Source of the DNA: Jimgerdemannia flammicorona | Taxonomy: Eukaryota | Direction of reading: 5' to 3' | NCBI GenBank assembly: GCA_003990765.1 | Contig: RBNJ01000334.1 | Location: 1-32,773 of the forward strand | Length of the DNA: 32,773 nucleotides | Shown here: positions 1 through 31,736 of the stretch, piece after piece | How positions within the stretch are numbered: position 1 is the stretch's first letter | How the letters are laid out: each line of letters begins with the position of its first letter | Program-made: the position numbers and the translations under genes | Notes under the pieces: model-generated | Database searches by the model: none | Told to the model about the DNA's origin: nothing | The model's input: the letters and a program-made list of their open reading frames with translations, nothing else

Positions 1-39
1 TTTTATAGTCTCTTAGACTGCCCTTTATTACCAAAGTCT

Positions 40-3000
40 ATAGTTCTAACAATACAATGTCACTCCCACCCTCAACCAATGCCCTGTGGGCCCAATCCTC
101 CCCCCTCGGCCTCCCTCTGTCCAAGCACCATCCAATTACCCACTACCTGAATCCTCCCACCACTCTTCTGGGAGATACACTGTACCAAACCCCTGTGGTT
201 CCTCCCACCCAGCCCCCAACCTTACCACCAGCTATTCAAAATGTCCAAAAGTAACCATTCCCAATGTGCCACCTTGTCCCCAACCCCAACCCAATACCCT
301 TCCTCAAAGACATGAACCCAATGCCCAGCCAACCCAACCCACATGGCCAAAGCTCAACCAAGGGTCAGCCATTCATCCCCAACTCTACCCACCAGTCGCT
401 GGCAGAGCTCTCCCCATCTCCCCCCTCCCTCTCCCTCCAAGACACTCAGCCCTACCTGGTTCATAATACATCTCCAAAACTTCTCCAAAACCTCACACTC
501 ACTAAGCCAATGTTCAGGCATTTGTACCACTCCTCCCTCCTGACCAACATTGAAACAATCCTCACACTCGAATACTCCACCAGCCACCAAGTGCCCAGAC
601 CAATAGTTCAACATCATATTCTGCCATAGAACATGCCACCATACCACCCAGAACTTGGGGGGCAGCCACTGCCTCACCCTCTTGCTCCAAAGCCAGAGAC
701 CATTCTAATCCCACTCCTCACCAATTCCAACCCTCTGCCAGGCTTCAGGCCACAGGTCTCCACCTAGGTCTTGCAGACACTCCAGACCCTCGCCAAGCTG
801 AAAGTTCTCCACTGGAACACCACCTAATAGAAGCCTGTCCCACTACTACATCCACAGTCTCCAATCCTCCTTGGCTTCATCACCTTGCCACCAAAGTCTA
901 ATTTTCTTAGTGCTATTCATCACTCCCCACCAGAAGCCCATAAACCACATCCTCCTACTCCCCTCCATGGCCACCATCGCGAGCAGGTCACCTGAGTCAC
1001 CATGTGGGGAGTACCGAATCTCCCACAACCTCTGCATAAGTGGCACCCACTCCTGACCTTGAAGCTCGCTCACCCTTTACAACCACCAAGCTCTCAGATA
1101 TAGAAGCTGCTTAGTAAAGTCCACTAAGCCCAGCCCACCTTTTTCCAAGAGCAGTGTGAGCACCTCCCAACCAACCTGACTTCGCCACCCTCCCCAGATC
1201 CATGACCTTGCCATCTTCAACAACCCCTTGATCACCCAGGTTGGGAAATCCAAATGATATCCCACATACTATAGCTTCGGCATCCAATACACATTCAGCA
1301 CTATCACCCTTCTGGCTAGAGACATATGCCAGCCTCTCCATCACAGCAGAACATTTCCCCACTCCAGAAGTTTACAGTCCCACTATGCCCAGGGAAGAAG
1401 AGATCTGAACACCAAGAAGTAGATCTCCAAATAATGCACTGGTTCATCAGCCAGTACCACTGTCCCAATAATATCGCCACCAACAATTCCAGTGCCCAGC
1501 ACCAGAGTCTTGCATTTGTGCTAGTTTAGTTTAGCACCAGAACCCCTCTCATACCATTCCACAGACCTCTGTAACTCCCCCACATCTACCAAGAAGCCCA
1601 GCTCGACCACCATATCATCAGCAAAGGCCCCCACCTTCCAATTAATTCCTAAAATGTCCAAACCCCCAATCTGATACCGAATTCTGTCCAGTAGAGACTC
1701 CAGGGAAAGGGCATACAATATGGGTGACAAAGGATCTCCTTGCAGTACCCCACATCCCAGGGGAAAGGTCACCCCTCTGTGGCCATTAATGACCAATGCT
1801 GCCTGACTGTCCTCCAAGAGGCTGATCAATGATCCTCAGAACCCTGGGGGGATTCCAATCCATTTCAGCACTCCCTCCAGCCATATCCTCTATCATAAGC
1901 CTTCTTCTGGTCCAGAAACACCAATCTGCCATCTACCCCTGTTGCCTGGGCACCTTCAATCACTCCATGAATCCAAGCTGTCCCATTTCAAATCAGCTGA
2001 CCACTGACAAACCCACACTGCTCCACACCAAGCACCTGCTGAGCAATTCCTTATAGCCTCATCACTAAGATCTTTGTCACCAGTTTGTGGTCCATGTTGA
2101 GAAGCATAATTGGCTGCCGGTTCTTCCAGTCCTCTCACCTCTCCTTATTCTTGTAGAGCAAGGAGACTAGCTCTAAGCACTGTCCCCCAATCCAGGCACC
2201 AGACCAAAGAACTCCATCACACATAGCAGTCATTTCCCCTAGCACCTTGCCCACCCCAGTCATCTTCTGCCAAAAATCCCAGGGAAGTCCATCCTCTTCC
2301 AGGGCTGTCCCCTTACTCATCAAGGCCACAACTCTGCAAATTTCCTCGCTACTCACCAGGTCCCCCAATGCCCCAAGTCCCATTGCAGGGTCTGGGTGCC
2401 AATCCCCCAGCTGCCTTTCAATGTCCAGAGCATCCATTCCTTCTTCCTCCTCACTCTATAGATTCTCCCACTGAGTTCTCAATAGGCCCAGAATCGCCAG
2501 AGTCCCCACCACCAGCTTGCCATTTACATCCAGAACTCCCTCCCACCACTGCTTCGTTCGTCATGCTTGTAGCAACCATGACAAAAACCTAGTAGGCCTC
2601 TCCCCCTCCTCAAGCCCCTGCCACCGCAGTCGGGCCACCATTCTCTGCAACTCCACCTCCTCCTCCCTTCGTAATACTCCTTTAAGCTCCTCTACCTCCT
2701 GCCGGATTCTCACAATATGACAATCAGTCATGTCCCCATCCTCCAGCACACCTGCCCATCTCTCCATGAGTGCTGCCAGATGCTGTGAGGCCCACAGCAC
2801 TCTCCGCCTTTACTGGGTACACTTTCCTTTCCCTACTTCCCTCCAATACCCCTGAGTATTCACCTTCAGTCTTCTCCAGCGGTCCCTAATCCCCAGGCCT
2901 TGTTCCTGCCACCTATCAATATTTCCAACCACCTCTGTTTCCCAACCCTCCCACAACACCCTATCCTCCAATAAGGAAGAATTTAGCCACCAATGTCTAG

Positions 3001-3727
3001 GCCCATCCTCATTTCCCCCAAACCTCCCCCCTCCAAGCAGCCCCCAGTGATCAGACTATGGACACCATACTACTTCTAGCACTGACCAGACATCCACACC
3101 CCAACACTCCGCTGTCAGAACCCAGTCAATCCTGGAGCCCAGCCCTGCTGCCCAGTGGGTGTACACCCGCTTATTGGCCCAAAAATGTCTTCCCGAGTCC
3201 ACCAAAGAACACAACCTCTCTATCTCCAACCAATCACCCAACCTACCACTTTCGTCCCACACACCTCTCCCTCCATCTGTTCTATCCATCTCCTTATCCC
3301 ATATCATGTTGAAGTCACCCCCCATACAGTCCAGCCCAACTTCTCCCAATACATCAGCCTCTTTCAATCTGCGAATCCAATCCACCCTCTCCTCTCTCTC
3401 AGCTGGGCAGTAACAAGACCCAACTGTTAATGAGCCCCATCTAGGCCTCTTCTACATTTCCCACACCACCCAAGACCCCCAATGTCCAATTTCCTCAATG
3501 TCCCCTATCTCTTTCTGAACAAGAATACACACTTTCCCCCTCCATACCACTGTACCCCCCCACTCCTTAGTCCAATCCTGTAAGTCCATATCTGCCTCAT
3601 AATGAACATCCTATAACAAGAAGAGATCTGCATCCAGTCTCTTAAGCCATCCAAATATATACTTCCTTCTAGCCACCCCACATAATCCATTAACATTCTA
3701 TGAGAATATTCTAGTTGTACTGTTCAT
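40..3727 (-). pseudogene. LINE ORF2 (APE endonuclease-reverse transcriptase), disrupted by stops and frameshifts
   Basis: Starts at ATG 3727: MNSTTRIFS*NVNGL...WLKRLDADLFLL*DV. EN, RT and zinc-finger motifs lie in track ORFs 3056-3385, 2135-2437, 1521-1829 and 354-677. The 3' end is approximate. Confidence 0.88.
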
Positions 3728-3758
3728 ATTGAAAAAATGTTGCAATAGCAACCCCAGC

Positions 3759-4975
3759 CTAGAATTCCATACTTATCTCATCTCTAGTCAGATCCAAGTG
3801 CCATTCAGCTTCTAAGTCACTCTCCACATTAGCCTGAGCATCCAGTGCCTCCAAGATTTCCTGACATTCCACCCCATCCACTACCTCCATATCTGACCAG
3901 TAGTCCAAGCAGACTGCATACCACTTCTCTAGTCCTTTCCTCAAGTTCCACAAGAAAAGTGCCCTGTCACTTACAATCTTCTGAAGTTCCTCCTCCCTCT
4001 GATCATCAACTTGATATTCAACCGACTCTAGGAGGACAGTCAGGATCTCATTTCTCATCTTCCTTGGCACCTTCTCCCCCCGTAGGATCTCCTCCCAATG
4101 CCTCTCTTCCATCACCCTGAAATCCTCACCCCCCAGCTCTTCAGCTGCTATCCCTTCCAGGGTCTTCCACATCTACTTCTTCTCATCCACTGTCTCCACC
4201 ACACCCTGAGCGATTTGTCTCCCATCCACCTCAGGGTCCACCAGCATGCTCCTTCTCACTGACTCATCCCACTCCTCATCTGGCATATCCAGCAGCTCCT
4301 CCTCCCCCTCAACTCCACCCAGGACACTATACTGAGGGTGCACACCCTCACCCATTTCGGCATCTGCCTCCAAACCGCCTTCCCTCTCCTCCCCCACTCC
4401 AATCCAAGCCCCACCCTGGGCCATTTCTTCCCTCTCAGTCCAGGCACTCTCCTGCAATCCCACAACTCCCTCTTCTGAGCTTCCACTGGCCCTACCCCCA
4501 CCCAACCTCACCAGCAGCTCCTTCTAGATTTTCCTCCCCTGCATCTTCTCCCAGGCCCTCTTCTCCATCCAGACCCTCTTCCCATCCACCTCCCCCACCA
4601 CCATCCTGGCCTCAAACTCCTTCCAGGCCAATCTCCTCCTTGCAACTGTCCCTTCTAGATCCTCCAGAGCCTCCAACAGGTCCTCCTCCTCCTCCTGGGT
4701 CCCCTTCACCCTTGTGATCTTACACTCCACTGGTCCCCACCGCAGCATTGCTGGCCAGTTCCTTGACTTCCCTGTATTCTCCTTCTCAGCCAGCCTCACC
4801 CTGACATCGATGTCACCAGTCCTAAGCTCCATGCCCTCCCAGACCTTGAACCCAACATCCATGATCTCTCTATACTCCTTGATCACCTCCACAACCAACT
4901 CCCTGGTCCTCTCCTTTGACATGGTAGGAAGATCCAACACTATCAACTGCACCACTCTGGGATCCCAGCACATGC
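3759..4975 (-). pseudogene. LINE ORF1, C-terminal part (RRM-like segment plus acidic helical region)
   Basis: Track ORFs 4524-4988, 4173-4511 and 3759-4172 are in one frame separated by stops. They align with ORF1 of copy B (WDPRVVQLIV...RTGDIDVRVRL vs WDSRVVQLLV...RTGDVDVRIRL). Confidence 0.82.
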
Positions 4976-6850
4976 CAGCTAGTATCAACAGATTTATTAT
5001 CAGACCAATTAGATCAACTTGACAATATAGGTAGTCTTGATAGAAACTTTAATAAGCTTATATTAGAACTTGAAGATCTCATTATATAAGTCTGATTCCT
5101 GTAGAAGTTTTATTAATTTTACCCATTGAATCTCTACCACCAGCTGTTATAAAATCAGAAGAACTAAGAGTAGCTCTCTCAAGGATATCCAGACCTATTA
5201 TACCTTACTCAAGATCTATAATACTATCTTCAAGATACTCAAGTATTTCAAACTCTAGTAATAACTCAAGAAGTAAACCAGAATCAGAACCAGAAGACAG
5301 TAATGATTAAATAGCCACCCCAATATCAACCTTTACAGAATACCCAGAAGAAGACTCAAGAGAATTCCTTGATAAAATTGAAGGAATCACTGCTCTGAAG
5401 AATCTCTTTGCTGAAAGAAAAATTACTATTTATAAGGCCCAACTCAAATAACTAGTCAGAGGAATTTTCAGCTAAGTAAGAAATAATATATATTTAGATC
5501 TTAGAGTAGCCATCTATATAGTACCAATTAGGTAAGTAGAGTATAAAGCTATGACTTACTAGCTTATTGAGAAGTATGCAGGAAATGAGACTCACTCTAA
5601 GGCCCAAAAATCTATCATGGAAATGAAGATGAATCTTAGAGAATCACTCAGGGCATTCTTTAAAGAGAATATATATAACTAGGTTCAATACTACTAACTA
5701 AGATATTATAGACCCAATGACCTTCATGAATGAGATTCTTCTGAACATTACTTAGTATATCTACACTCTAGGTATTAGAAGGCCTAAAGAGTAAGTAGAT
5801 ATAGCCTAAGAATTTTTTGATATCAAATAAAGAACTATCTGGAGTGATCATGATAAAAAAGATAATAAGAAGGACCTCTTGGTCAAAGCTCTATAAGGAC
5901 TCCTCTAAGGACAAGAAGGATCTAAAAAAAGAAAATCAGTCAAAGAAAAGAAGAAAGATAGAAATAAAATCTAAGATCTTAGTTTTAAGTTAGACTGATT
6001 GGTTAGACAGATTGAAAAACTCACTATATACAAAAATTAGAGCTACTTATAAGACAATAGAGGATATATACTACAAAAGAACCAAGGTTATTTACTCAGA
6101 GATAATAGGAGCTATCAGTATAAAGAAAGAAAATATTCTATCTGAGATAGAGCTTAAGTTTAATACTTTTACTGTAGATAGTCCAGATACTATACTACTA
6201 AATATGATAATAGAAGAAGTAACTGGAGAGACTTAGAACTACCAAATTGAAAGAATGAAATCCAGAACAAGAAGACTGAAATTCGCCCTATTGAAGACTT
6301 TGAAGAAAAAAGTAATAGCAAAGACTATAGTGATCTAGACTTATATCCAGTCAAGGTTATCATTAAAAAGATAGTCTACCTAGTAGAGAAAAAGAAGAGA
6401 TCTATAGAAAGACCATTTAGGAATACCAGTAGAAAAATCATCTAAAAAGAAGATAAAGAATATAAAGAAGAGTAAGTAAAAATACCTCTCTGGTCTTCTT
6501 CACCTTTTGTTTCTGAAACAAATGAACCACTTTCAGAAGATAAAGAAATAGAGCAAAAAGAACAAGAGTCTGCTTCTCCAAAGTTTAAGAAAAAGTATAC
6601 TCTGAAGACTATATCCAAAGATATCTATAATGAAGCCTGGTAAAAGATTCAAAAAACTCAGATAGAAGTCTCTCTCCTATAGTTCCTATAATTGATATCT
6701 GCTGAAGTCTGAAATAAATTATTAAGAACTACTAGATCTAGCACTGGCTAAGCTCCAATTCTACAATAAGAATCAGTCCTAATCACTATTCAGGCTATAG
6801 AGAGATATGTTAGCATCTACCTATATAGAGATATTGGAGAACAAAAGGTA

Positions 6851-7093
6851 AAAATTCTCATCAATATAGGAGTAGCTATCTGTATTATTGCTAAATGATT
6901 CCTGGACACACTCCAATGATCTATTGATAGACTATCCAATCTCAGCATCACAGTAACAGATAGAGCCCAAACTCAACCTCTTGAAAAAGTACAAAACATC
7001 ATCATCTTCCTTGGATACATTCAGTTTTCTATTCTAAAAGCTATTATTACTAAAGCTATTACTTATAATATAATTCTTAATATTAACTGAATG
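6851..7093 (+). pseudogene. Retropepsin (aspartic protease) relic
   Basis: Manual translation gives KILINIGVAICIIAK*FLDTL...YNIILNIN*M. This converts to the L-I-D-T-G-A...D-I-I-L-G-x-D-W signature by transitions alone (AAT<GAT, ATA<ACA, GTA<GCA, TGA<TGG). Confidence 0.75.
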
Positions 7094-7191
7094 AAAGAAA
7101 TAAATACAGTTATCAATATTAATCAATAAGTACTCAAATTTGATTATTGAGAAAAGAAGTATAGAGTTAAGGTAACTAGCTATTAGTAGTC

Positions 7192-7292
7192 AAAAAAAAA
7201 AAAAAAAAAAAAAATAAAAAAAAAAAAAAAAAAAAAACACAAAATTAAATATTAAAAAAAAAAAAAAAAAATAAAAGTAAAAAGATATTAGT

Positions 7293-7320
<28 letters not shown>
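7192..7320 (+). repeat. Interrupted poly(A) tract inside the Gypsy relic
   Basis: About 130 nt of almost pure A with short interruptions, directly after the protease and before GAA GAA GAA GAA TCT GAT GAT. Confidence 0.9.
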
Positions 7321-7323
<3 letters not shown>

Positions 7324-8554
7324 CTATCTAAAAAGAATATACTAGTAGTGAGAAATCTACTATAAAAGAAGAAGAAGAATCTGATGATAGAAATGATATC
7401 AGACTTAATTTCCAAATCAATCTAATAGATGATAGACCAGAAGATAATTTATAGACAAAGAATACCATCTCTATCACAATCAGAGCTATTGTAGAATAAA
7501 TCAAAAGATATCTCATCTATTTCAAAAGATACAAGACTCTGAGCACTTCTCCAAGATCATTAAAATAAGAAATTTATCTAGTATAGCCTATCTGGAGTAT
7601 AGAAAAAGAAAGAAGAAATACAATTACACTTCAAGAATATTCACAATTAAAGCTATAGAAGTATAAGTAATTTGGGATTAAAAAATATTCAAGGAAAAAG
7701 AAACTCCTAAATAAGAGATTTCTAAACAAGAGAAGCTTCCTGATAGGATGATTCTTACTAGATATCATTAGAAGATAATGACTCTTAGAATATTGAAAAA
7801 GGACCAAGCATAGTTACTGTTATTTTAAGGCAAGAAATATACTAAGAAAAAAACCTTTTAGCTAGGAAGATATCAGTATCAAATAATCTTTCACTCTCTC
7901 TAAGACTACTACTATCAGTACCATCTGCTGAATTAATAAGAAAGATAGAGACTTTATAGGTCAGAAGTACTGATCATGATCACTCAGACAACTATCTTCT
8001 AAGAAACCACTATAATGTTAAAAGATCAAGCTAGAGGATAAGGTCTCTTCACTCAAACAGAAGTATACCTCTTGGTTATCTTTCTCCTAACCTATAACTA
8101 AGATAGATATTATTTCTCTAAACAATAAGAGATTAATAACTAAGAATAGCATTTTCAAGCAATGAGATATTATAACTATAAAAGACACCCAGATTGCTGA
8201 GACTGCTAGTATCAGAAGATTTATTTCAGCTAAGATATTATTATTCATATCCTGAAGAGAGAAGATGATAGAACTCAGATCCAAAAAAAACCAGACCAAG
8301 AAACCAAAGAAGGAAACTCTTAAGATTTATGATCTAGAAGAAGATATTTTAGCTCTCATTAGATATATCCACTAAGGATAGATAAAAGATATCACCAACT
8401 TTATAAAAATTCTAAATCCTATAGAAAAAGAGGAATTAATTATCTTTGAGATCCCTCTACTAGAGCTAGATAACTGCATCTCAATCTCAGAGTCTAGAGG
8501 CTTACATCCAATAGAGCCTCAGCTCAAGGATAATCTGAACTCAGTAAAGATATT

Positions 8555-8961
8555 GCCCAGTATATTCTGCTACATCCTAAGGCCAAACACCTGACCAAAG
8601 CTTACTAGAAAGACATAGGGTATGATCTCTGCAGTCTAGAGAATGAACCCATCAAGTCTGGAAGAACAGTAGTATTTATAATAAAACTAGCCATATAGCT
8701 GCCTAAAGAAAATTATATCCAGTTGACCTCAAGATCTGGACTTGTCAGACAGAGAGTAACTGTAGAAGAAGAAACTATAGACCCAGGATATACAGGCAAA
8801 ATCAAGATCATCTTACATAACAATGATACAGAATGATACTGAATCTTTAGAGAATAAAAGATTATACAAGAGTCTTCATAGAAGTCAAGACTTCTCAATT
8901 ATAAGAAGTTCCTGAGCTAACTGAGAAAATAAGACAAACTGAGAGATTTGGAAGCTCAGAC
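8555..8961 (+). pseudogene. Trimeric dUTPase relic
   Basis: Manual translation gives AQYILLHPKAKHLTKAY*KDIGYDLCS...SRSGL...IDPGYTGKIKIILHN...KIIQ, then after a frameshift EVPELTEKIRQTERFGSSD. All five dUTPase motifs (GYDL, RSGL, IDxxYxG, RIAQ-like, RxxxxFGSS) appear in order. Confidence 0.9.
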
Positions 8962-9420
8962 AAAAAGGAAGTATACCTCCTTTAAGTCAACCACTTCAAG
9001 ATGAAGAACTGAATATATTATAGAGTCATTATACACAATAGGCAAGTTTTCCCATCAATAGACGGGTTGGACACCACAGTCCAAATTAAAGGGTCAGTCA
9101 TAAGCCTTAGGACACAACATTCACGGAAATGGGATTAGCCCTAAGGGCTTCAAATGAAGTTATTTCACGGTCGGTCATTTTGAGCGACGGCGAAAACTTG
9201 TTTAATACATGTCCATTCACAACATTCTCTTTGAAGGCGACGGCCAGAAAAAGGGATACTTTATGCATATATTTATCATTCCAACCCCAATATCATTCCA
9301 ACACTAATATTAATCATTCCACCCAGCGGAAGGTGATTCTTTCTATAAAGGAGGGCTACGAATGTTCCCGTAATCCGAAAAAAATGAGCTACAAAAAACC
9401 CTTTCAAAAACAAAAGCAGA

Positions 9421-11095: not shown

Positions 11096-13029
11096 CAGGA
11101 AATCATAATGTCCTGCTCGCGATCTCATGACACGAAATTACCTTGTGATCTCGTGACACAAAATTACTATTTCCTGCCGGTCTCGCGACATGACCTTGTA
11201 ACACGATCTCGTGGAGCAGAAGGTGACTGCAATATTGATCATTGGTTCTGTATATCTTATAGTTTACTCCCTTAGTGTAGTCTTGTTCTATATCTACATA
11301 ACCTATAGTATATTTGATGTTTGAATAGTAGATCAATAAGAATAGTATTTATTTGATATCACTATATCATTAAAGGAGGCAAGAGGATCTCAGTTTTGGA
11401 ACCCCATAGTATATATTATTATGAGATTCTAAAACTAAGGTCCTCTTGTCTTCATTAATGATCCAAATTTGATATAGTGATACTAAACAAATATCATTCT
11501 TATTGACCTACATACTATTCAAATATCAAATGTGAAGACAAATTTAAACTACAAACATACTATTTTTTTTTTGTTTAATGGACTCATGTCCCATGGATTT
11601 TTATTGGAAGGGAACCTAGACTATATAGGCCAAAACCCTCCCCCACCACCCACCAAGCACTGCCCCCCCATTAACCTAGGCTAGCTATTGTCCAGCAGCT
11701 CAACTATGCCAGGCACAGCAGGGCTAATAAGCCCACACCTCATTCTGCACACCATGCTCTCCCTACCACCAGGGGAAACCCAACCATATGCCAATGACCA
11801 AAAGCACATGCCTGAGAACCCAACGTATGTACAAGGCCATGCCCGAGCTGAATAGAATAGCCCCTGCCACCTCAAAGAGAATGACAGGCAAATAAAAACC
11901 CTCATCAAAGCACAACATGGTGGGTAGGGCCTGGTTCTTCCAGTTGAGGTAAGTAAAGGACTTACATGTGAGGTGGGAGGAAATCCCCAATACCCCACTA
12001 CTCAAGCCTGCGGGCCTCGATCACGTTGCTGTGTCAGCTTCTGGTTCCAGTTGAGTGCAGCCAAGATGCCTGAAATGGGTAGCCTTGGGCCTCCTGACCC
12101 CCCCTGATGACTGGGGCCCAACCCTGCTGACCGCCAAAAGAAGCTGATAGTGATACCTACCACCTAACCATGCTGCACCAATCAAAAGGCCCCACCGAAG
12201 CAGCACCTGCCCCAGCCCCAACAACCGCCCCCAGCCTGGCACCCTACTGGTTCACCGTAATCGCCCTTCCACCTATCTGTGATGGCCATCTCCCCTCCCA
12301 TCCCAATAACACCCAAAAAGCAGTCACCTACACCAGAACCACGCTCGCCGAGAAGCTCGCCAAAGCCAGAGGGCCCCACCACAGGCACCGAGGACCTGCA
12401 GGTAACCTACACTGAGCACTTGATGCCCAAGGTCGGCCGACTCCCTACGTAGCCTGAGACACACCGAGACAACTCCTTGTTAGCAATGGCAAAAGGAAGA
12501 AGGTGCCGCACCAAAACGGGTACACCCTAGATGCAGCTGAAGGCACCAGAATCCGTGAAAAAGTGGAGGAAGCACCGATCTGACACTGATAAAGGGGCAA
12601 CTCATCACCATTGCCCTCCTCCTGCCATGCCCCTGCAGGCACAGCAAACCAACCTGAGATAGAGGGGGTAATATTAGGGGAAAGGGGACTCGGAAGGTCG
12701 CCTACCAAACCTTGTGACTGGTAAGGTAGCAGAGAAAGGAGTGTATTCGCCTTGAACTACAAACATACTATAGGATATGCAGATATAGAACAAGACCACA
12801 CTAAAGGAGTAAACTATAAGATATACAGAACCAATGATCAATATTGCACCAGTCACCTTCTGCTCCATGAGATCATATTACAAGGGTCATGAGTAGGATG
12901 TGTTGCAAGATCACAAGCAGGATGTGGTAACTTCATGTTGCAAGATTGCAAGCAGGACATGGAAATTTTAAGTGCGAGCGAGATAAGCAGGACGTGTGTC
13001 ATGAGATCGCGAGCAGGACATCATTCCTG
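11096..13029. mobile_element. Palindromic foldback/MITE-like DNA element (~720 bp before insertion), interrupted by a retroelement
   Basis: 26-bp perfect inverted repeat at 11108-11133 / 12996-13021. Arms ~11190-11312 pair with ~12770-12890. The inner region 11313-11530 is itself a hairpin centred near 11414. No TSD was identified. Confidence 0.85.
11563..12754 (-). mobile_element. Non-autonomous SINE-like retroelement, copy A (complete, ~1.19 kb)
   Basis: A perfect 16-bp TSD, AACTACAAACATACTA, lies at 11547-11562 and 12755-12770. The A-tail appears as T10 at 11563-11572 and is preceded by AATAAA and a GGAC-atga-GTCC hairpin. There is a second copy at 32208-32773. No RT or EN motifs are present. 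Confidence 0.9.
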
Positions 13030-13543
13030 CACATTAACAGTCACAAATTGGTTCGGACCGTCTTTTACTTGTCTTACGCTTGTATATACGCTTGTAGAGC
13101 GAGTCATAATATAGAAATTCATTCGCCATATTTACAATCAGCTCTCGAAGGTTAATCGGCTCTAAGCAGAGAATTGTTTTGATTCCGTTCGTGAGCTGTT
13201 TTAAGTCGCAAAAAGGGATTTCGCTGTCATAGACAAGATTGAGACCAATATAAACCACATTGATGAACTCGATATAATTAATCCAGTCTGTGTTGCGTTT
13301 GGCTGGTGCAGCCCTCATTTTTAGTGCTGATCTCCCTACTAGGGGAGGAGCAAAACAGACAACGACGTACATTTTAGATAAGCTTCTAATAAAAAAATTC
13401 CTCCATCAGCCCACCTTTCCGTCTCGTGAAATAAATACCCGCCCCTACCCCATTGCTATGCCTCCTTATATTCTCCTTCCTTCTCCTCTCCTCCTATCCT
13501 GTCCCGTTCAACCCTCCCCCACCGCCGCCCCCGATCTACAGAC

Positions 13544-15232
13544 ATGACTGCCACCACGTCTACAATCTACCCCGACATGACCACCACCACGTCTGCCCGG
13601 TTCCTTACTCTCAACATATTTATACGACCACCATTCATCAAGAACAACCTATCTGATTACAAGGACTCCCGCCTCAAATATTTTATTCGGTACGTCCTGC
13701 CACGTTACGACGTCGTCGCACTACAAGAGGCCTTTGCGTTTGGGTCTATACGTAAGGACATCTTAATTTGTAAGGCCCGTAAAATGGGGTTCAACTATCA
13801 CATCGAGAGCATGCGCAAGAACATCTGTGACTGGTCCATCGACGGCGGGCTGTTGATCTTGTCAAAATTTAAGATTGTGGACTCGGCGAAATTGGAATAT
13901 GAGAGGGGTGTTCATAGTGATTGGTAAGTTGGTAGATACATTTTGGATTTAGACGAATATTGAGATGTGAAAAATAATTTTATGACAAAGGATTTATGAT
14001 TTGACCGCAATGAAAATAAATAAATAATAATCGCTCATGCAACCCTCTCCTATCCCTCTCTCTCTCCGCCTTCTGGTACACCCCCAGGTTCGCCGCTAAA
14101 GGCGCCCTTCACGCCCGTCTGGAGTTGAATCCTTCCACCCATCTGGACCTCTTCACGACGCACACACAAGCCTCTTACGGCCCACCCCCTCCAACCCTAA
14201 CCGACTCAGCCACGAAAGTCCGGTTCCGGCAGTTCTCCAAACTTCACGACTTTATCGCTTTCCGGGCTAACCTCCCCACAGGCGCATCCTCTCCGGTAAT
14301 CCCGATCCTGCTCGCGGGCGACCTGAATGTAGACGCATCGCAGCATGTCCCTCCCCCTACGCAGCCGTCTTCAGGTGCATCGGAAGAGTACGAAGCGATG
14401 ATGAAAGTTCTCCGTGGTGACAGCATAGAGGATTTGCCGGCATCCGAGAGACGGATCCCGTTGCTGGTGGACTCCGTGCGAGAACAGCTCGGGTACCACC
14501 CCGTGACGTACGGAGACGTGCAGCTGGGCCCGGATGGCGTGATCGAGCCTGCAGAGACCGTGCTGACCGCCAAGATGGACCAGGGGACCGTGCAGAGTTT
14601 GGATCGCCTCTTGTTCTGTGAGGCAGCGGAGGTGGAGGGAGAGGCAGAGGGAGAGAGGAAACAGCAGGGGTTGGCGGAGGGGGAGGTACGGCAGGAGAGA
14701 TATAGGATCAGGATTGCGAAGACGGCGGTGGAGAAGTTTTTGGTCAAGGATGAGAAAGATGTGACGGATATCTTGCCGTTCACACAAGTTTCAGGTGGGT
14801 TGAGACTCATTTTTTAATACAAGTGTGACGGCAGTGTTCTCTTCCATGACATCATTACATTTGTATGTATTCATTTGTTACCGAGGGGAAAGAGGGGAGA
14901 TTTTTTACTTTTTTTTATTTTATTCATTATGTCAATTTTTCTATCGATTATCATTCCCACACTGCCCCCCTCCTCTCTCCCCTTTCCTTTTCTCGGGGGT
15001 GGGGAGGGGGGGGGGGAAGTATGGTGTTGTGTGCGAAAGGCGGCCGAGAAAAATTAATTGGATGAAGCAGATTTTTCATTTCTTTCTTCCTTTCAAACCT
15101 TTTCTTAACGATTTCTGTAAGAAATTGCTTTGTTAATTTTCTTGCACACATTTAATCTCACATGGACTTTTTTTCTATCGGTCTATAGATCACTACGGTA
15201 TCTCTGCCGTTATCGAGCTGTCGTTCGTCTAA
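13544..15232 (+). CDS. Endonuclease/exonuclease/phosphatase (DNase I-like) family protein, neutral sphingomyelinase-like, 376 aa; exons 13544-13923, 14088-14794, 15189-15232
   Basis: Motifs FLTLN, DVVALQEAF, DGGLLILSKF, DW|FAAKGALH, TTHTQA, LAGDLNVD, SLDRLL and the terminal S|DHYG. Canonical introns (GTAAGT..CCCCAG; GTGGGT..CTATAG) keep the frame and rebuild the catalytic SDH. The substrate is inferred. Confidence 0.92.
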
Positions 15233-15752: not shown

Positions 15753-16748
15753 ACCAATGTATCCGATCGAAACCAATAAAGGTAATGTCACCGAACCGGA
15801 TTATATAATAGACTTTAACTGCAACCGCACATGTACTACATGTGTACAGCATATATTTGTGGAATCCCACAACCTCGGACGTCAATATGGCAAAGTGTTC
15901 CCATCACCCCAGAACCACCTGAATATGACTATAGAAGAGTTATACGGATAGGGTGCGCGGCGGCTGCACTACATAGTCCGTACACCTGACTAACGGGCAC
16001 AACGCCAATAAAATTAAAGATTTCGACATGATATTTGATGCTGGAAGACGTTGGCGCTAGAATAATGGGAAATATCAAGTTGACTTGTAAACAGTAGCCC
16101 AAAAGTACCAATATATCCGATCGAACCCAATAAAGGTAATGGCACCGAGCCTGATTATAAAATAAAGTTTCACATGTATATACTTACAGAATCCCAAAAC
16201 CTGGGATGTATATTTATTGTCAATATGACAAGTGTTCTAATCACCACAACCACCTGAATACTATGCCGGCGCGAAATTCAGTTCCTCCTGCCTATTTGAT
16301 CACATACAACCGAACTTAGTAATGATTTTACGAAAAATATTTCAATATTGAGTAGACCAACCACTGACAAAGGCTGCAGGATAAAGTTAGGTTCACGAGA
16401 ACGTGAAGACGTGCGATTTCGCGAGGACGCGCGATTTCGCGAGGACATGCAATTTTGCAAAGGTTGCTTAGTATTATGTGTGGCACAAGTTATGCCTGTG
16501 TCCAGAAACGTTGCGCCAATATTTATTTAAGTGTATTTTAAACGGTTTATTTTTTATTCAAAAGTATTTTATTATTGATGAATTTTGCCTCAAGTAGGCA
16601 GGAGGAACTGAATTTCGCGCCGGCATAGTATGATTGAAGAGTTATTCGGGTATATACTTGGCGGCAGCACTACATAATCCGTACACCTGACCACCCAGCA
16701 CAATGCCAAAAAATTTAATGATTTTGATGCTGGAAAACGTTGGCACTA
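15753..16748. repeat. Diverged tandem duplication of a ~350-bp unit; the second unit carries a MITE
   Basis: accaat.tatccgatcgaa.ccaataaaggtaatg at 15753 and 16107. The blocks gcactacata.tccgtacacctgac and tttgatgctggaa.acgttggc.cta occur in both units. Confidence 0.85.
16261..16628. mobile_element. MITE with TA target-site duplication (Tc1/mariner-type), 368 bp
   Basis: 39-bp TIRs with 34 bp perfect (CTATGCCGGCGCGAAATTCAGTTCCTCCTGCCTA). TA lies at 16259-16260 and 16629-16630. Removing the element restores cacctgaatatga, matching the paralogous unit near 15916. There are three internal 18-bp tandem repeats. Confidence 0.95.
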
Positions 16749-19232: not shown

Positions 19233-20336
19233 CAGGGTGCAGGGGTGAGTGAGTTTAAAATTTATCTGTCCACAGACTTACTAGTTCTTTTATCTCTTTG
19301 CTTTTGAACTATTTTTATCTGAGATTTATTCAACTAGATACTGGAGATATTTATATAAGTTTGCTAGCTATAAGGTAGCTAAGTTAGGACTTTTTTTCTT
19401 ATAAGTTATATTTTATATCTATAAGATCCTTATATTTGTAGAATTCTTATAATTATTTATTTCTTATAAGTATAAGATTCTTACAATTATAGAATTCTTA
19501 CATATAAGATTGAGACTATAATACTATACTAAATTTGAAAATTGAATTAAGATATTATGATCAAATATCTATCTTCTGATTCTTATTCTTAATTCAGATC
19601 ATATGTTACAAATTTTTCCTAAATAGATGATCTTGTTTCTGAAGTATCTATTCAAATATCCAAATCTTTACTAACTATATAGTATTATATTATAATCTAC
19701 TCAATTACTGTTTTCTAGTAATATATTTTATTTATATAAAATCTTTTAAAACTACTTCTCAGAAATAAGTTAGAGCTAGCTCATCATTCTTGAATAACTT
19801 ATAAACTTATTTAGTAATAGTGATCTAAGTATTAGAAATCTGATATTTAGCAATGTATTCTTCTTTAATTATGTCTGACTTCTAATTAAGAAGTTATCTC
19901 AACTTAAAGTATTCTTAGAACTTAGCTTGATATTGATAGACTCTAAAATATAAAATTTATAATAGGTGAGTCTGTACAATACTTTAAATACTATTAAAAA
20001 ATTCCTCTATACTTGAGTATTTAGTAAAATACTATTATCTTTCTATAGCTTACTGAGCAATACTGATAATCTTAAGAACTATAGCTATTATAATATATCA
20101 ATCTAGTATTACTCAAAGATCAGAGTTAAATATATCAAGTCTTATAATAATTAAATATAGTCTTATCAGTAATAAGACAATATAATTATTAAATAGTATT
20201 ATCTGAAGATTTTATCTAGTTTTTCCACTGCACCATCTCGACATTTGATAGTTTCTCCAGCACCACATCTGGTACAACTAGAGTTTTGCCACACTGCCCC
20301 TTTCTCCACTACCTTACTAATTACAATTGTTTGGTA
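19233..20336. mobile_element. Extremely AT-rich, TpA-rich decayed element of unresolved class
   Basis: Abrupt compositional switch after CAGGGTGCAGGGGTGAGTGAG at 19233. The region is almost CpG-free with stops in all frames. No diagnostic motif could be recovered. Confidence 0.45.
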
Positions 20337-20340
20337 GGCC

Positions 20341-20809
20341 ACGGGCAATACAGGTAATATGGGCAATATGGGCAATATGAGCAATACAGGCAAGATGGGC
20401 AAGATGGATAAGATGACAAGATGGCAACATGGGCAACATGGGCAAGATGGGCAGATGGCAAGATAGGCGACATGGGCAAAATGGGCAACATGGGCAACAT
20501 GGGCAACATGGGCAACATGGGCAACATGGGCAACATGGGCAATATAGGCAACATAGGCAACATGAGTAATATGGGCAACATAGGCAATATGGGTGGGCAA
20601 GACAGGCAAGATGGGCAAGATGGGTAAGATGGACAATACGGGCAATATGGGCAAGATGGGCAAGATGGGCAAGACAGCAAGATGGCAAGATGGGTGATAT
20701 GGGCAAGATGGGCAGATGGCAAGACAGGCAACATGGGCAAAATGGGCAACATGGGCAACATGGGCAACACAGACAACATGGGCAATACAGGCAATACAGG
20801 CAACATAGG
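20341..20809. repeat. 9-bp tandem array (ATGGGCAAN, ~50 units) with ~260-bp higher-order duplication; cut by the chromovirus LTR
   Basis: Units are ATGGGCAAC/G/T, ACAGGCAA, ATAGGCAA and ACGGGCAA. The irregular block atgggcaagatgggcagatggcaaga recurs at 20438 and 20699. Confidence 0.95.
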
Positions 20810-21617
20810 TGTAATAACTCTCACTTCTATCCCTCTCTTATCCTTTGAATAATTAGAGAAGTGGACTATTACTTAGGGACTTAGTACACAATATATACCA
20901 AGAAGCCTTCAGTTTGAGGAAGTGCTCACTTAAAGTAGTTGTAGCAGTAGTGCCTTATCTTTCAAAGGTCTTTCTTGGATTTGCCCTCTGTTTCAAAGGT
21001 CTTTCTCTTATGCCCTATTTCGAGGGTCTTGTTCTTTGCTGTGCACAGACTGAATTTGCCTTGGAATTCAGGTTCAATGGGTTTACTTAAGTCTTTGGGG
21101 ATCTATATATTGATCTCAGTTCTGGCAGAAGTTAGCTAGGCTTCTGGAGTTTAGTCAGAAACACTAGAGTCACTTAGATATCATTACTAAGACTCAGGAG
21201 AATGTGTGTGTGTGGGGAGGACTTGATTCTTGTATCAAGGACTGAACTAAAACTGCTTTATTTCGGATGGAAACTGGGGGATATTTATACAAGTTGGTCC
21301 GCGATTTCTGACTAAGTATGAGTGACTAATTTGGTAACTATAATGAGGTTTGTGATCGTGACCTTTATTAGGTGGTTTTTGGTAAAAACAACTTTGTGAT
21401 CAGGATCTCAATTACTAGGCAATGATCAGTTACTGTGGTAACTGTTGCTGTAGTGCTGATTGTTGGGGATAAGCTGGATATCATTTTCCACGTCATTTCG
21501 CATCATTCGCATCATTCGTCATTCATATGTCACACTTCGTTCATATGATGACATCATCGCCGGGTCACGTGATTGCTCGTCATTCATCATGTCCCATCTG
21601 TTCATCATTCTATTACA
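20810..21617 (-). repeat. 3' LTR (808 bp)
   Basis: 7-bp inverted termini TGTAATA (20810-20816) and TATTACA (21611-21617). It directly follows the PPT and contains TATAAATA at 21282-21289 (minus). The partner LTR is not in the window. Confidence 0.85.
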
Positions 21618-21630: not shown

Positions 21631-22438
21631 AGAAATCAATGTCCTCGTTGATTGAGAAATTGAGAACCAGGGGAGAGAAAGGTGGGGAATCTTCCTCAGG
21701 GGCAGGGGGGATGGTTATTGCTGATGGCTCGCTGTCCAGGATGGAGAAGTCAATGAGATCTGCAAATGGTTCTTGTATTGGAATAGGTGCTAGTGTAGGG
21801 GTTCTCCATCTGATGCGGTTGGGGCCATCCAAGTAGGGCTCTTGATCTTCATGCCTGGGAATATCCATTCAGATAGGTGGTCCTTCAAAGAGGTCAGAGA
21901 GACCTTGGAGCCATTGGTCAGGGTTGTTATTCAGGAGGGGGCTCCAGTAGGGTTCATAGTCAGTAGACTTGAGGGCAATCCAGGAGTTGGCTTCTTGGGC
22001 AATCTTGACTTCTAGGGCATTAACCTCAGGGAAAGAGAGGTTCTGGAAGTCCTTCAGTTGTATGTAGTTGAGGTTGAGAATCATGAAGGGTACATAGCAC
22101 ATGATTTGATGGACCTTCTTGGCAAGTCTTTGCTCGTACCTGTCTATGTAAGTCCAGTCAGAGACTTGGTCTGTGGGCAGGTCCTTTGCCCATTGGAGGA
22201 GTTGATGGCCAATCTTGTATTCATGCCAGATTTCTAGGTGGCTGGTAGCAAGGTAGGCTCTTTCAATGACTTCACAGTAGTTGAGGACATAGTGTCCTAG
22301 GTTCTGACTAGAGAGGTTAAGGGCCTCTGAGCGGTGGTTCCTTCCTTGGATGGCAATCTGGATGTGTCCAAAGAGGCGGTCAACCTGGCTTGGGAGGGGC
22401 TGGCTGTGGCAGGCAGTTTGGCGGCAGGTGGTAGGCAT
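21629..22438 (-). CDS. Additional ORF of the chromovirus, 269 codons with one internal TGA; unknown function
   Basis: Track ORFs 21869-22438 and 21629-21868 are contiguous and in frame, separated by a single TGA (plausibly from CGA). It has the same sense as pol, its TAA overlaps the PPT, and a TATA box lies upstream. Confidence 0.72.
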
Positions 22439-22502
22439 TCTTGTCTTGTCTTTTCTTTGTGAGGAAAGGGGGATGAGAGTTGCGGAGTATTCTTGCCTTG
22501 GG

Positions 22503-22510
22503 TATTTATA
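22503..22510 (-). promoter_or_regulatory. Candidate internal TATA box for the additional ORF
   Basis: TATAAATA lies 65 bp upstream of ATG 22438 and is identical to the LTR TATA motif. Confidence 0.55.
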
Positions 22511-23080
22511 CTTATTCGCCCATCTGATGTGACCTTCCTTTGGTCACACTTTCTGGCAAAATGCATGACCTGTGCTGTAAGTGGAGCATATGCTGGTTAC
22601 ATGAGGAAATCCTGATTTCAAAGATCTCATCACCCGTCTGTGGTTACACAAGGTTAACAGGTCTTAGTCCACTTTTTTTTTGTCTGGCTGGCACATTTGC
22701 GAGGACTGGCCATCCTGTCTAGGGCGAGGGCTCCCATTGTCGCAGCTGGGGATTCAAACCTCTTGGAAATAGACTTTTCTTGTAATCTGAGGCAATTCTT
22801 TAGTAACAATATCTGTCATGTAGATGGACTTAGACTGGTTTCAACATTGTCAGCTTTCCTAAGTTTCACATGAAGCGTCCATCATCATCCAGCGGAGATG
22901 ACACAGATGGCGTGAAATGGAGTTGTTCAAATGTATTTTGCTTTATGGTACTAGATTGTTCTTTTGCTCGGATATCTTCTTGTTAGTTATCCATAGTGTT
23001 CCTTTTTTTGCAATGTTTGGCATTATATGTTTCTAGATAAAAATATGTGGTATCCTTCTGCTCACTGTGTGCTCCTATAC

Positions 23081-25861
23081 TTAGAGCTGTAGTTCCTTCC
23101 TTTGCTGGGGGGTGAGTGTTTCCATGTAGTCCTGAAGGGCTTCACATGCATTCTTCAGGACTTCTTCTTTTACCCAGGTGGCATCATGGGTGGGGTAACC
23201 CTTCCACTTGATCAGGAAAAAGTGCTTGACTGTTTCAGGATATTTGTGGACCTTGTGGTCAAGTACTTCCTCAATTTCGAATTCCTCATGATCATTGATC
23301 CTAATTGGGGGTGGTGGTGGAACTGTATGCTTGGGGAATGGGTTCTCATAGTAGTCCCTCAATTGGCTGATATGGAACACTGGGTGTACTCAGATATTGT
23401 GGGGAAGTTGCAACTTGTAGTTGACTTCGCTGATTTTTTCCATAATCTTGTATGGTCCAATTCTTCTAGCACAGAGTTTCTTGGCTGGTTGTTGTGCCAG
23501 GGTGTCTGGGTGGAGGTGGTCTGTTCTAAGCATGACCTTGTCACCAATATTGTAGGAGGCTTCTCTTCACTTCAAGTTTGCATACTTGGTCTGGTAGTCT
23601 TGTGCTTCTATGAGAGTATCTCTTGTCATTCGCATAAGGTCAGAAATGGTCTCGGCCAGATCTTGGGCTGCTGGGACTGCTGATTTCATAGTAGTACTAG
23701 GGGTTCTTGGGTGTTGACCATGGTTCAAGAAGAATGGAGTCTTCTTTGTGGAGGTTTGCTGACTGTTGTTGTAGGCAAACTCAGCATGGGCTAGGTACTT
23801 GTCCCAATCATTTTGCTTGTAACAGTAGAAGATACTAAGCATCTGTTTGAGAGTCCTGTTGGTTCGCTCGGTTTGACCATCAGTCTGAGGATGGTAGGCA
23901 GTAGAGAACTTCAGCTTGGTTCCATGGAGGGAGAAAAATGCCTTCCAGAAGTTGCTTGTGAACTTGGTATCTCAGTCAGATACAATGGTGCTAGGCATGC
24001 CATGTAGCCTGAATACTTGGTTGAGGAAGATCTCGGCAATCTCTGGTGCTGTAGCAGTGGTCTTGGTGGGTGCAAAATGGACTTGTTTACTTAGGCGGTC
24101 CATGAATACCACGATGGCATCTCATCCTACCTTGGTCTTGGGGAGTTGGACAATGAAGTCCATTGCAATCTGGTCCCAATTGTGACTCGGGATAGGCAAG
24201 GGTTGCAGGAGTCCTGCTGGTAGCTTGTTACCACTTTTGAACCTTTGGCACATCTCACATGAGGCCACAAAGTCTTTGATATCCTTGGTCATCTTTGGCC
24301 AGTAGAACTCTCTTGAGAGGAGGTTGTAGATCTTTTCAAAACCAAAGTGTCCTGCTGCAGGGGTATCATGGAGTTCCTGCATGATTTTGAGTCGCAGAGT
24401 ATCATTGTTGGGTACAACCACTCTGTCATGGTCCCTGTAAATAAGTCCATCATGGTAGGTGAATCTCTTGGCCATTTGCCTCATGGGTTCTGGAATCTCG
24501 GCCTCTGGATCTTGGCAGAACTGAAGGAAATTCATCAGTGGGCTGTCTTGCTGGTAGCCATCTTTGATCATTTGGGTAAGGTCTCCAATTACTTCGACCA
24601 TGAAGACAAGTTCATCTTCCATGTACCTGGAGAAACCATCAGCCACACAGTTGGTTTTGCCTGGGATATACTTGATTTCTATATCAAAGTTGGCAATGAT
24701 TTCATCCAGCAGACTTGTCTGTGGGTCAGCATGGGCTGTGTGTGAATATACCACAGTGTATGGTGATCAGTGTAGGCCACAAATGGCTATCCTAGGAGGA
24801 AATGGCGCCATTCCTGGAGTGCAGTGACAATAGCCAGGAGTTCCTTCTCATGGGTGGTATACCGGATCTCAGCTGGCTTGAGCTTCTGTGAAAGGTAGAC
24901 CACTGGGCAGTCTTCTTGGCTGAGTACTGCTCCAATAGCAATGTCAGAGGCATCTGTAGTCAGAGTTAATGGTCTGGTAGGATCAGGTGCAATTAGCACT
25001 GGGGCCTCAGTAAGGAGTCTCTTGAGATGGTCCTAAGCCAGGGTACATTCAGGGGTCCATTCAGCTTTGATGTTTACTCCTTTATGGGCCAGGCTAGTCA
25101 ATGGGGCTGCAATAGCAGAGTATCCTTGGATAAACCTTTGGTAATAACCAGCAATACTCAGAAAGCATTGGAGTAGCTTGAGGGTAGTGGAAATAGAGAT
25201 ATCCTTAAGGGCTGATACTTTTCGGGGGTCCATGTTGATACCTTCAGCAGAGATGATATATCCTAAGTACTCAATCTGGTCTTGGTAGAACTTATACTTA
25301 CTCATTTTGGCATAGAGCTGGTGTTCTCGCAGAAGGATCAGTACTTGTCTAAGGTGGGTATAGTATAGCTCTACTGTTTTGCTGTAGATTAGTATATCAT
25401 CAATATACACAAGGACACAGATGTTGAGGAGTGGTCCAAAGATGTCATTCATCAGATACTGGAATGTTGCTGGTGCATTGGTCAATCCAAAAGGCATGAC
25501 TTGGAACTGGTAGTGTCCAAACCATGTTCAGAAAGCTGTCTTCTCAATGTCCTTCTCATCAATGAGAATCTGGTGATAGCCATTTCACAAATCCATTAGA
25601 GAAAAGGTCTTGGCCTTGAAGATTTGGTGTAGCAACTCATCAATCCTGGGCAAGGCATACTGATTCTTGATAGTGATCTTATTGAGGGCTCTGTAGTCAA
25701 TACACATTCGTAGAGAGCCATCCTTCTTCTTGACAAATAGAATGGGGGCTCCAAATAGAGAGTGGCTGGGTTCAATGTACCCTTGGGCCAGTAGTTTGGT
25801 CAATTCATCCTTGAGGGTCTTGAGCTCAGGTTGAGCCAGTTGATAGATACTCTTGTATGGG
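23081..25861 (-). pseudogene. Chromovirus pol (RT, RNase H, integrase, chromodomain), multiple stops
   Basis: [90 protein letters not shown], and EFEIEEVLDH..FLIKWKGYPTHDATW. Confidence 0.95.
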
Positions 25862-25964
25862 CATCTCTCTCCACTACAATTCACATTACACACACTTTAC
25901 AACATACTTTTGAATCGTTTATTGGAGAAAGATATTAAGGAGATATCAACCAGCAAGTGAGCCA

Positions 25965-27977: not shown

Positions 27978-28007
27978 GATGGGCTCTGATATATATAATT
28001 ATTCTTT

Positions 28008-31690: not shown

Positions 31691-31736
31691 TAGATGGGTA
31701 TTAATAAAGAAAGAGAGTCCAAGTGACTATAAAAAA

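Follow-up and report, generated by a model that had tools for sequence, protein, structure and literature searches.

A many-copy, non-coding retroposon family with a fixed 5′ terminus in Jimgerdemannia flammicorona, probably mobilised by a LINE

Contig RBNJ01000334.1 of the fungus Jimgerdemannia flammicorona (assembly GCA_003990765.1), analysed here over positions 1 to 32,773 (the window, 32,773 nt), carries at 11564-12754, with its sense on the minus strand, a complete copy (copy A) of a many-copy non-coding retroposon with a fixed 5′ terminus; the terminus falls on the same base in both copies present in the window and in contigs from other sequencing runs. We consider copy A to be, with good probability, a full-length insertion of a ~1.17-kb polyadenylated family without long terminal repeats (LTRs), mobilised in trans by a long interspersed nuclear element (LINE) of the apurinic/apyrimidinic endonuclease (APE) type. 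Three LINE copies with APE and reverse transcriptase (RT) sequences, all old and diverged, lie in the 32.8 kb (LINE A, LINE B, and LINE C). The family is new but its kind is known; its host is a soil fungus of the Endogonales, an order that has received little study, and no new principle is involved. An original prediction, made from the letters of the window, had described the element as a family mimicking both ends of the resident LINE; its non-autonomous family, transcribed by RNA polymerase II (Pol II) to judge by its features, is upheld, whereas the proposed borrowing at the 5′ end is partly supported and the mimicry at the 3′ end is wrong or unsupported.

Copy A is made up of a body, an A-tail, and a target-site duplication (TSD). 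The TSD, AACTACAAACATACTAT, is an exact 17-mer found at 11547-11563 on the A-tail side and at 12755-12771 on the 5′ side, and the bases beyond each copy differ. Its last T is common to a T10 run on the plus strand (11563-11572), which is the element's poly(A) tail (A9-A10; 11564-11572 once the shared base is given to the TSD). The element had been correctly located in the first place, with a TSD of 16 bp that is one short, depending on this shared T. LINE-dependent retroposons have TSDs of variable length, longer than 5 bp, and an A-rich 3′ end directly followed by the TSD, and copy A displays both. The body, 1169 nt on the minus strand (11573-12741), begins with CTCCTTTCTC at 12741, the sense 5′ end, and finishes at 11573, the last base before the tail. 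The sole AATAAA hexamer of the sense strand stands at 11600-11605, 27 nt before the A-run. The first ~45 nt (12697-12741), of which TCTCCGCTAC is a segment, constitute a 5′ head that is common to the second copy (copy B) and to a third site at 20297-20342; its start is rich in pyrimidines, the motif TCTCTGCTAC lies at 12726-12735, and the bases CTACC..GGTAG make up a small inverted repeat within it.

Between the TSD and the first base of the family, copy A has 13 extra nt (12742-12754, minus strand) that are absent from copy B and represent either filler or an upstream start. Untemplated or template-jump filler is common at 5′ junctions made by LINEs, and these 13 nt, together with 4 extra nt in copy B, fit such an origin. 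The 13 nt match 4773-4785, in the sense strand of open reading frame (ORF) 1 of LINE A, at 11/13 positions, and, when up to 2 mismatches are allowed, the window contains three non-self matches to them (0.66 expected); the sequence is too short for this to be called a template-jump footprint. Copy A is, moreover, inserted in a foldback inverted repeat resembling a miniature inverted-repeat transposable element (MITE), where it adjoins the right arm on its inner side. The arms (11228-11321 and 12755-12848) are 94 nt long and 93% complementary, and a second, inner inverted repeat lies in the same structure (11328-11369 and 11470-11511).

Copy B (32212-32773, plus strand) comprises the first 562 nt of the family and is cut by the end of the scaffold. 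It is 90.0% identical to copy A over these 562 nt, without gaps, and corresponds to copy A sense positions 14-575, the homology starting at the identical base in each (12741 = 32212). Upstream of this base, copy A has its 13 unrelated nt and then the TSD, and copy B has 4 unrelated nt (32208-32211) and then a LINE fragment. The two copies differ at 56 places, of which 47 are transitions and 23 are at CpG; copy B is the less CpG-decayed, with an observed-to-expected (o/e) CpG ratio of 0.77 against 0.30 for copy A.

Contigs of four public sequencing runs (X1, X2, X3, and X9) were placed on 11263-13054 of the window. All of them (2122, 199, 160, and 63, respectively) fall in bins 11563-12762, i.e., on the element only; the flanking bins (11263-11562 and 12763-13054) have no cover in X1-X3, a blank that we do not use as evidence. 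Contigs that run past 12741 enter sequence that is unlike the window and unlike one another, with an inter-contig agreement beyond that base of 0.58 in X1 (4 contigs) and 0.51 in X9 (4 contigs), plus one different contig in X2. Loose contig ends begin at 12741 on the 5′ side, and T12 loose ends occur at 11563 (X1 and X2). Among the differing places listed between X1 contigs and the window, 137/145 are transitions, and the 2122 contigs are spread over all levels of likeness (294/635/897/296 by identity band). The unit thus behaves as a repeat family with defined ends, in that two copies in the window share their first base and contigs of four runs cover the unit alone. Because copies diverge from each other beyond one and the same base, the 5′ end is fixed rather than randomly truncated, as had been proposed from the second copy, and the element is not the 3′ untranslated region (UTR) of a LINE.

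That UTR reading, under which copies A and B would be two 5′-truncated remnants of a long 3′ UTR of an autonomous LINE, could appeal to the position of copy B directly downstream of LINE C in the same orientation and to a sense strand that is G>C skewed like those of the LINEs. We regard it as close to negligible: the TSD of copy A stands right at the 5′ end, LINE C breaks off where ORF2 begins, 3.5 kb short of the expected LINE 3′ end, and no similarity to the 3′ UTRs of LINE A or LINE B is found. Moreover, copies and other-run contigs stop being alike at one base and then continue into different sequences, so that they do not extend 5′ into common RT-coding sequence (agreement 0.51-0.58, as above).

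The contigs also bear on whether the copies are processed pseudogenes of a highly expressed host RNA, with a single host gene as master. Such pseudogenes would likewise be polyadenylated, flanked by a TSD, devoid of RT, and defined at the 5′ end by the transcription start of the gene, and the WEIRD RNA of Magnaporthe (PMC2104539) sets a precedent, as a host RNA without coding capacity that LINE enzymes have copied. We find this account improbable. Pseudogenes are expected as few copies from one parent, and a single run holds 2122 contigs over all identity bands, while the two copies in one 32.8-kb scaffold differ by 10%; the contig spread and this divergence together indicate that amplification was prolonged and gave rise to subfamilies. 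How such pseudogenes differ from a SINE-like (short interspersed nuclear element) family fed by a "master gene" is partly a verbal matter.

The scope of the read data and of the further searches is as follows. Part of the stretch is contained in 20 of the 21 public runs listed; the small shares in X4-X8 and X10-X21 are no evidence of habitat or host, and since the RNA nature of X9 is a guess, we draw no conclusion from it about expression. In X9, 72% of the placed contigs continue into unlike sequence, and individual contigs bridge segments of the 5′ third (e.g., 12444>12636 and 12622>12720); these joints, short-sided and of low likeness, hint at shorter or rearranged relatives that keep both ends and are a lead only. 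One further copy stands behind a protein of the Joint Genome Institute (JGI) that is 91% identical to an ORF of copy B, the only protein found and uninformative on function. No further decayed copies were found in the window by nhmmer, nor were there matches in public metagenome contigs to the head pattern or to a purine/pyrimidine-tolerant interior pattern (0 each), or in public genome contigs to two interior patterns (0). Four pattern scans of public viral contigs gave 0 matches in three cases; the fourth, with a 17-base head pattern, returned 9 loci that have no other similarity to the window and were dismissed as chance.

The family does not code for protein. No Pfam family was found in 5/5 scanned ORFs of the two copies, stops occur in all frames, and the longest ORF beginning with ATG is 74 aa. 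The 56 differences between copies A and B are distributed over codon positions as 18/20/18, without codon periodicity, and there are about three non-synonymous changes per synonymous one in every frame. The initial observation that recognisable coding motifs are missing is borne out, and with no capacity for an endonuclease or RT the element is a non-autonomous retroposon. ARAGORN found 0 tRNA genes, and a search of Rfam, run as had been advised, yielded nothing at gathering scores in the whole window and, for the element, just three matches of no relevance (E 2-8); the predicted lack of a tRNA or 5S head is thereby confirmed. To the eye, GGTTTGGTAGG / TTCCGAGTCC in the head could pass for tRNA-like, but this was rejected as unsupported by ARAGORN and Rfam. 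With nine runs of at least four T (T4-T5) in the sense strand, a 1.2-kb transcript by RNA polymerase III (Pol III) is unlikely. At 1169 nt, with these T-runs and with no tRNA-, 5S-, or 7SL-like head bearing A and B boxes, the element differs from a classical Pol III SINE, which would be short (<~700 nt) and devoid of internal T4+ terminators, and the AATAAA before the tail, the T-runs, and the lack of a small-RNA head fit a polyadenylated Pol II RNA. The sequence features thus agree with the earlier view of a long non-autonomous family, probably of Pol II rather than Pol III type.

We now consider the 5′ head. The motif TCTCYRCTAC occurs at four sites on the two strands of the window (65.5 kb) against 0.16 expected, and 0/100 shuffles give four: copy A (12726-12735, minus), copy B (32218-32227), the tip of LINE B (25868-25877), and the third site, hereafter head3 (20303-20312), which the original prediction had overlooked. 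A 26-nt extended pattern has four sites against 0.01 expected, the pattern having been derived from those same sites. In LINE B the motif reads TCTCCACTAC and lies 5-14 nt from the junction with sequence of a gypsy element. That the versions of the motif represent one CpG and its two deamination products, as had been suggested, is plausible given the share of A/B differences at CpG and the CpG o/e ratios of the two copies.

Head3 (20297-20342, plus strand) is a third copy of the 45-nt head that starts at the same first base and then continues into a different body. Its likeness to the element is significant by blastn (81.8% over 44 nt, E 1.8e-5) and by local score (46 against 14.6±2.6 in shuffles, 0/500), and 43/45 head positions are alike when transitions are ignored. 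The head3 body is a 9-bp tandem array, GGCAAYATG, of ~470 bp that extends to 20809, where a putative gypsy 3′ LTR cuts it at 20810. As the 45-nt head fronts both the family body and this unrelated body, it constitutes a module on at least two bodies. In the ~75 nt before head3 (window from 20220), two or three degenerate repeats of the TTTCTCCAC-like start of the head can be discerned by eye.

The relation of the head to LINE B is weaker. The element matches the LINE B tip over 10 nt, or 17/26 when extended, and head3 matches it at 20/26 (6/500 shuffles). Local alignment of the 5′ ends of the element and LINE B is not significant (226/500 shuffles reach the score), while a terminus-anchored test over the first 40 nt, tolerant of CpG decay, is reached by 197/20000 shuffles, and none of 10740 40-nt windows inside LINE bodies reaches the motif run. 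The motif was first found by eye, i.e., post hoc, so the p-values flatter it, and the window offers a single full-length LINE 5′ end for comparison, that of LINE B; LINE A and LINE C have lost theirs by truncation, and the window contains no additional pieces of LINE. The claimed 10-nt match at the LINE B 5′ end is present at 25868-25877, but its interpretation as a borrowed start signal is only suggestive. We judge the chances of a real relation between the head and the LINE B tip to be about even.

The competing possibility is that the family is indeed LINE-mobilised but that its likeness to the LINE B tip arose by chance or by convergence on a pyrimidine-rich host initiator, with the head belonging only to non-autonomous elements or to a host non-coding gene. 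To this we assign a substantial probability, though one short of even. The shared stretch is short and pyrimidine-rich, the local alignment is indistinguishable from shuffles, about 1% of composition-matched shuffles reach the 10-nt run with a motif chosen after looking, and the CTACC..GGTAG inverted repeat is present in head3 and absent from LINE B. Against chance, the motif occurs nowhere else in the 65.5 kb of both strands, no LINE-body window attains the run, and its location at the extreme 5′ tip of the sole full-length LINE is what a borrowing model predicts.

A sharp 5′ terminus could alternatively be produced by a self-cleaving ribozyme acting on a co-transcribed RNA rather than by a promoter. 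HDV-like (hepatitis delta virus-like) ribozymes are known at the 5′ ends of R2, L1Tc, and other non-LTR elements, and here the terminus is identical in three contexts and the head can form a small hairpin. This account is nonetheless very unlikely: no ribozyme family matches the element, the LINE B 5′ end, or head3 at E<=10 (novel ribozymes lying beyond such a search), the predicted fold of the head hairpin is weak and not significant (z -1.65) and has no nested double-pseudoknot features, and the 13 and 4 extra nt upstream are more readily explained by variable filler or start sites than by exact cleavage.

At the 3′ end, the last 140 nt of the element show no similarity to the 3′ ends of LINE B and LINE A (181/500 and 151/500 shuffles, respectively, reach the score), whereas the two LINE 3′ ends are homologous to each other (0/500). 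The LINE A and LINE B tails have a conserved stem, AGTCy-AAG-rGACT, just before ATAAAA and a short A-run, and the LINE A stem is equalled by 87/5000 shuffles. In the element, the supposed 3′ hairpin amounts to a stem of 4 bp that 1344/5000 shuffles equal, and the minimum free energy (MFE) fold of its last 70 nt is unremarkable (z -1.72). All three 3′ ends carry AATAAA 19-27 nt before the A-run, an arrangement that is generic for polyadenylated RNA. In the interior, 47/100 and 12/100 shuffles reach the scores against LINE A and LINE B, a lack of likeness beyond composition that accords with the original impression. The best non-self tblastx match of the element in the window (E 3e-4; 69 aa, 30%) was rejected as compositional, as it is in opposite-strand frames; the other tblastx matches map to non-corresponding parts of the LINEs, and Smith-Waterman comparison with shuffles confirms this verdict.

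These results weigh on the idea from which the analysis started, that the family mimics both LINE ends and that the LINE RT recognises its AATAAA-hairpin-A-tail arrangement, as in stringent SINE/LINE pairs. In its favour, the sole full-length LINE has TCTCCACTAC among its first 14 nt, the anchored test gives 197/20000, head3 bridges the element and LINE B, and all three 3′ ends share the hexamer spacing and a short stem. It is nevertheless doubtful to a high degree, since the 3′ ends of the element and the LINEs show no similarity by a measure that readily relates LINE A to LINE B, the 4-bp stem is no better than chance and differs from the LINE stem in sequence and spacing, and the AATAAA and A-run are shared by polyadenylated RNAs in general. 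The 3′ tail shows no homology to LINE A or LINE B, such as the tail of a stringent pair would have to its partner, and the partner LINE may be a family outside this scaffold. APE/RT LINEs are abundant in the window, and their sole tie to the element is the weak 5′ motif.

For the trans-mobilised, polyadenylated family that we favour, the following course of events can be proposed. Pol II would start at the fixed first base, as set by the head acting as an internal or terminal promoter/initiator module, and the element RNA would be cleaved and polyadenylated at its own AATAAA. A LINE endonuclease would nick an A/T-rich target, on which the RT would prime from the poly(A) tail (target-primed reverse transcription). 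Mobilisation in trans would thus proceed in a relaxed, L1-like mode rather than through recognition of a LINE-like 3′ structure. Full-length copying would take the head, and hence promoter competence, to each new site; this carriage of the head would explain the dominance of full-length copies with the same first base.

Several points weigh against this reading. Pol II transcription and a promoter role of the head are deduced from sequence features. Flanks are seen for just two copies, of which one is complete, and the placed contigs are short and cannot show RNA starts, copy number, or TSDs. The parent element of head3 is cut off by the gypsy LTR at 20810. The motif shared with LINE B was picked post hoc and makes a modest showing in both the anchored and the local test, a weak link. 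Finally, the conserved 3′ stem of LINE A and LINE B could mean that these LINEs recognise their own RNA and are not the mobilisers.

The LINEs themselves are disposed as follows. LINE A (1-4985, minus strand) is 5′-truncated, lacking approximately the first 780 nt, has its 3′ end at the window start, and is 65-68% identical to LINE B. LINE B (25864-31736, plus strand) is a full-length but decayed APE-type LINE with an RVT_1 match, inserted in the RT of a gypsy element, with its 5′ boundary set where the gypsy pol homology ends and an A6 tail at 31731-31736. Among solved structures, the LINE RT is closest to human L1 ORF2p (E 8e-8). LINE C (31737-32207, plus strand) is a fragment that spans the end of ORF1 and the start of ORF2 and is 70% identical to LINE B. 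The A6 tail of LINE B directly abuts the 5′-truncated LINE C, and no TSD belongs to LINE B itself, whose flanks have at most a 4-nt word in common; LINE C breaks at the ORF2 start and is followed by 4 nt and then by the exact 5′ end of copy B. The region 25864-32773 may be one tripartite template-jump insertion or a set of nested insertions, and the scaffold ends too early to tell.

A bolder reading, which we hold to be tentative and on balance rather unlikely, combines these threads: non-LTR elements of the Endogonales would have in the 45-nt head a start module that is portable, and LINE B, LINE C, and copy B would be one tripartite insertion. If so, the head would set the first transcribed base and be exchanged among autonomous LINEs (LINE B having a diverged version), the 1.17-kb family, and one or more other families (head3 with its 9-bp array), a fungal counterpart of the trypanosomatid Pr77 considered below. 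The tripartite insertion, if real, would be a direct footprint of the resident LINE RT copying element RNA.

Elsewhere in the window, the gypsy element is a chromovirus on the minus strand (pol 23083-25863; putative 3′ LTR 20810-21617). A 224-aa open frame at 21872-22543 (minus strand), between the end of gypsy pol (chromodomain 23084-23389) and the polypurine tract and LTR, has no Pfam family and may be an extra ORF of the chromovirus. A host gene at 13430-14814 (plus strand) encodes an endonuclease/exonuclease/phosphatase protein (sphingomyelinase-like), and its ORF at 14020-14814 is 100% identical to a named J. flammicorona protein and 51% identical to a protein of Endogone sp. A search with the gypsy integrase had plants as its most frequent taxon, an indication set aside in view of this 100% match. 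CpG o/e is 0.92 in this gene against 0.14-0.21 in the LINEs and, as given, 0.30 in copy A and 0.77 in copy B; the low ratios in the transposable elements (TEs; 0.14-0.30) suggest methylation-driven repeat decay. On their sense strands the LINEs are strongly enriched in G and poor in C (G 0.38-0.40, C 0.13-0.15), with a GC skew of about +/-0.5 in 1-kb windows; the gypsy sense strand has the opposite bias, and a milder form of the LINE-type bias is seen in the element (G 0.32, C 0.22). The stretch 5100-9000 is A-rich and very AT-rich, with a CpG o/e of 0.01 and long A-runs at 7192-7330, and has the look of repeat DNA in advanced decay. At 15753-16727, a small repeat structure comprises clustered direct repeats (68 and 67 nt, 84-87% identical) together with an inverted repeat of 42 nt (98% complementary).

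Genomes of the Endogonales are reported to be very rich in repeats, that of J. flammicorona being given as about 240 Mb in size with >77% repeats (PMC10386755). In the literature on Jimgerdemannia and Endogonaceae transposons and repeats, the coverage of which stops short of the original genome paper, we found no description of this family or of Endogonales non-LTR families, and one recent Endogonales genome paper contains no TE terms. A many-copy family with exact ends would be useful for annotating and masking Endogonales genomes and for dating insertions by CpG decay. If the head is a shared start module, it would furnish a second, independent example, in fungi, of retroposons that secure full-length, promoter-carrying copies, and a compact candidate promoter from an unculturable fungal lineage.

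Set beside known systems, the family shares with classical SINEs its non-autonomy, LINE dependence, TSDs, and A-rich end. Classical SINEs, however, derive from tRNA, 5S, or 7SL RNA and are transcribed by Pol III, and the stringent pairs share the LINE 3′ tail, whereas our element has no small-RNA head, is 1.17 kb long with nine T-runs, and has no LINE-derived 3′ tail. Human SVA is a closer match in build, being a 1-3-kb non-coding composite (Alu-like, variable number of tandem repeats [VNTR], and SINE-R parts), confined to primates, that is mobilised by L1 via its poly(A); like SVA, the element is long, non-coding, of Pol II type, and polyadenylated, although SVA has no fixed L1-like 5′ terminus. 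Sadhu elements of Arabidopsis are described as non-coding, non-autonomous retroposons with diverged subfamilies and with target sites that fit LINE mobilisation (PMC2848041); they differ in being a plant family, of moderate copy number, for which the abstract states no 5′ module common with LINEs. In Magnaporthe grisea, WEIRD and MINE are described as involving a non-coding RNA copied by LINE enzymes and template-jump chimeras with SINE and LINE sequences (PMC2104539). Such chimeras offer a possible reading of the LINE B-LINE C-copy B arrangement at 25864-32773, yet WEIRD is reported fused to LINE 3′ parts, whereas copy A is free-standing with its own tail and TSD.

For the head itself, the working model is Pr77, the 77-nt 5′ hallmark reported to be shared by L1Tc/NARTc, ingi/RIME, SIDER, and DIRE, which serves as an internal promoter for Pol II and determines where the RNA begins (PMC1874656, PMC8190864); promoter activity of the 45-nt head is, for its part, predicted. 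Pr77 is described as containing an HDV-like ribozyme, of which no match is found in the element, the LINE B 5′ end, or head3, and NARTc and RIME as deletion derivatives that keep LINE 3′ sequence, whereas neither at its 3′ end nor internally does the element have sequence in common with the LINEs of the window.

The nearest precedent is Eg-R1 (EGRT1) of Blumeria graminis/hordei, described as a SINE-like, Pol II-type element with >3000 insertions, an AAUAAA signal, and no A or B boxes (10.1101/242271). Like Eg-R1 as presented there, the family is a fungal non-autonomous non-LTR element without A/B boxes, with internal T stretches, an AAUAAA signal, and TSDs. It is longer (1.17 kb against ~670 bp), and it has A9-10 in copy A and T12 loose ends in other copies, whereas genomic copies of Eg-R1 are described as being without A-stretches; the host of Eg-R1 is an ascomycete and ours belongs to Mucoromycotina. 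The two are likened here by description. The first 88 nt of Eg-R1 are given as nearly identical to the 5′ end of the non-LTR element NonLTR-5_BG (10.1101/242271, Fig. S4 legend), compared with the 45 nt shared here with the element of head3 and the 10-26 nt shared with the LINE. A 5′ end common to a non-coding retroposon and a LINE-type element is thus already on record in fungi.

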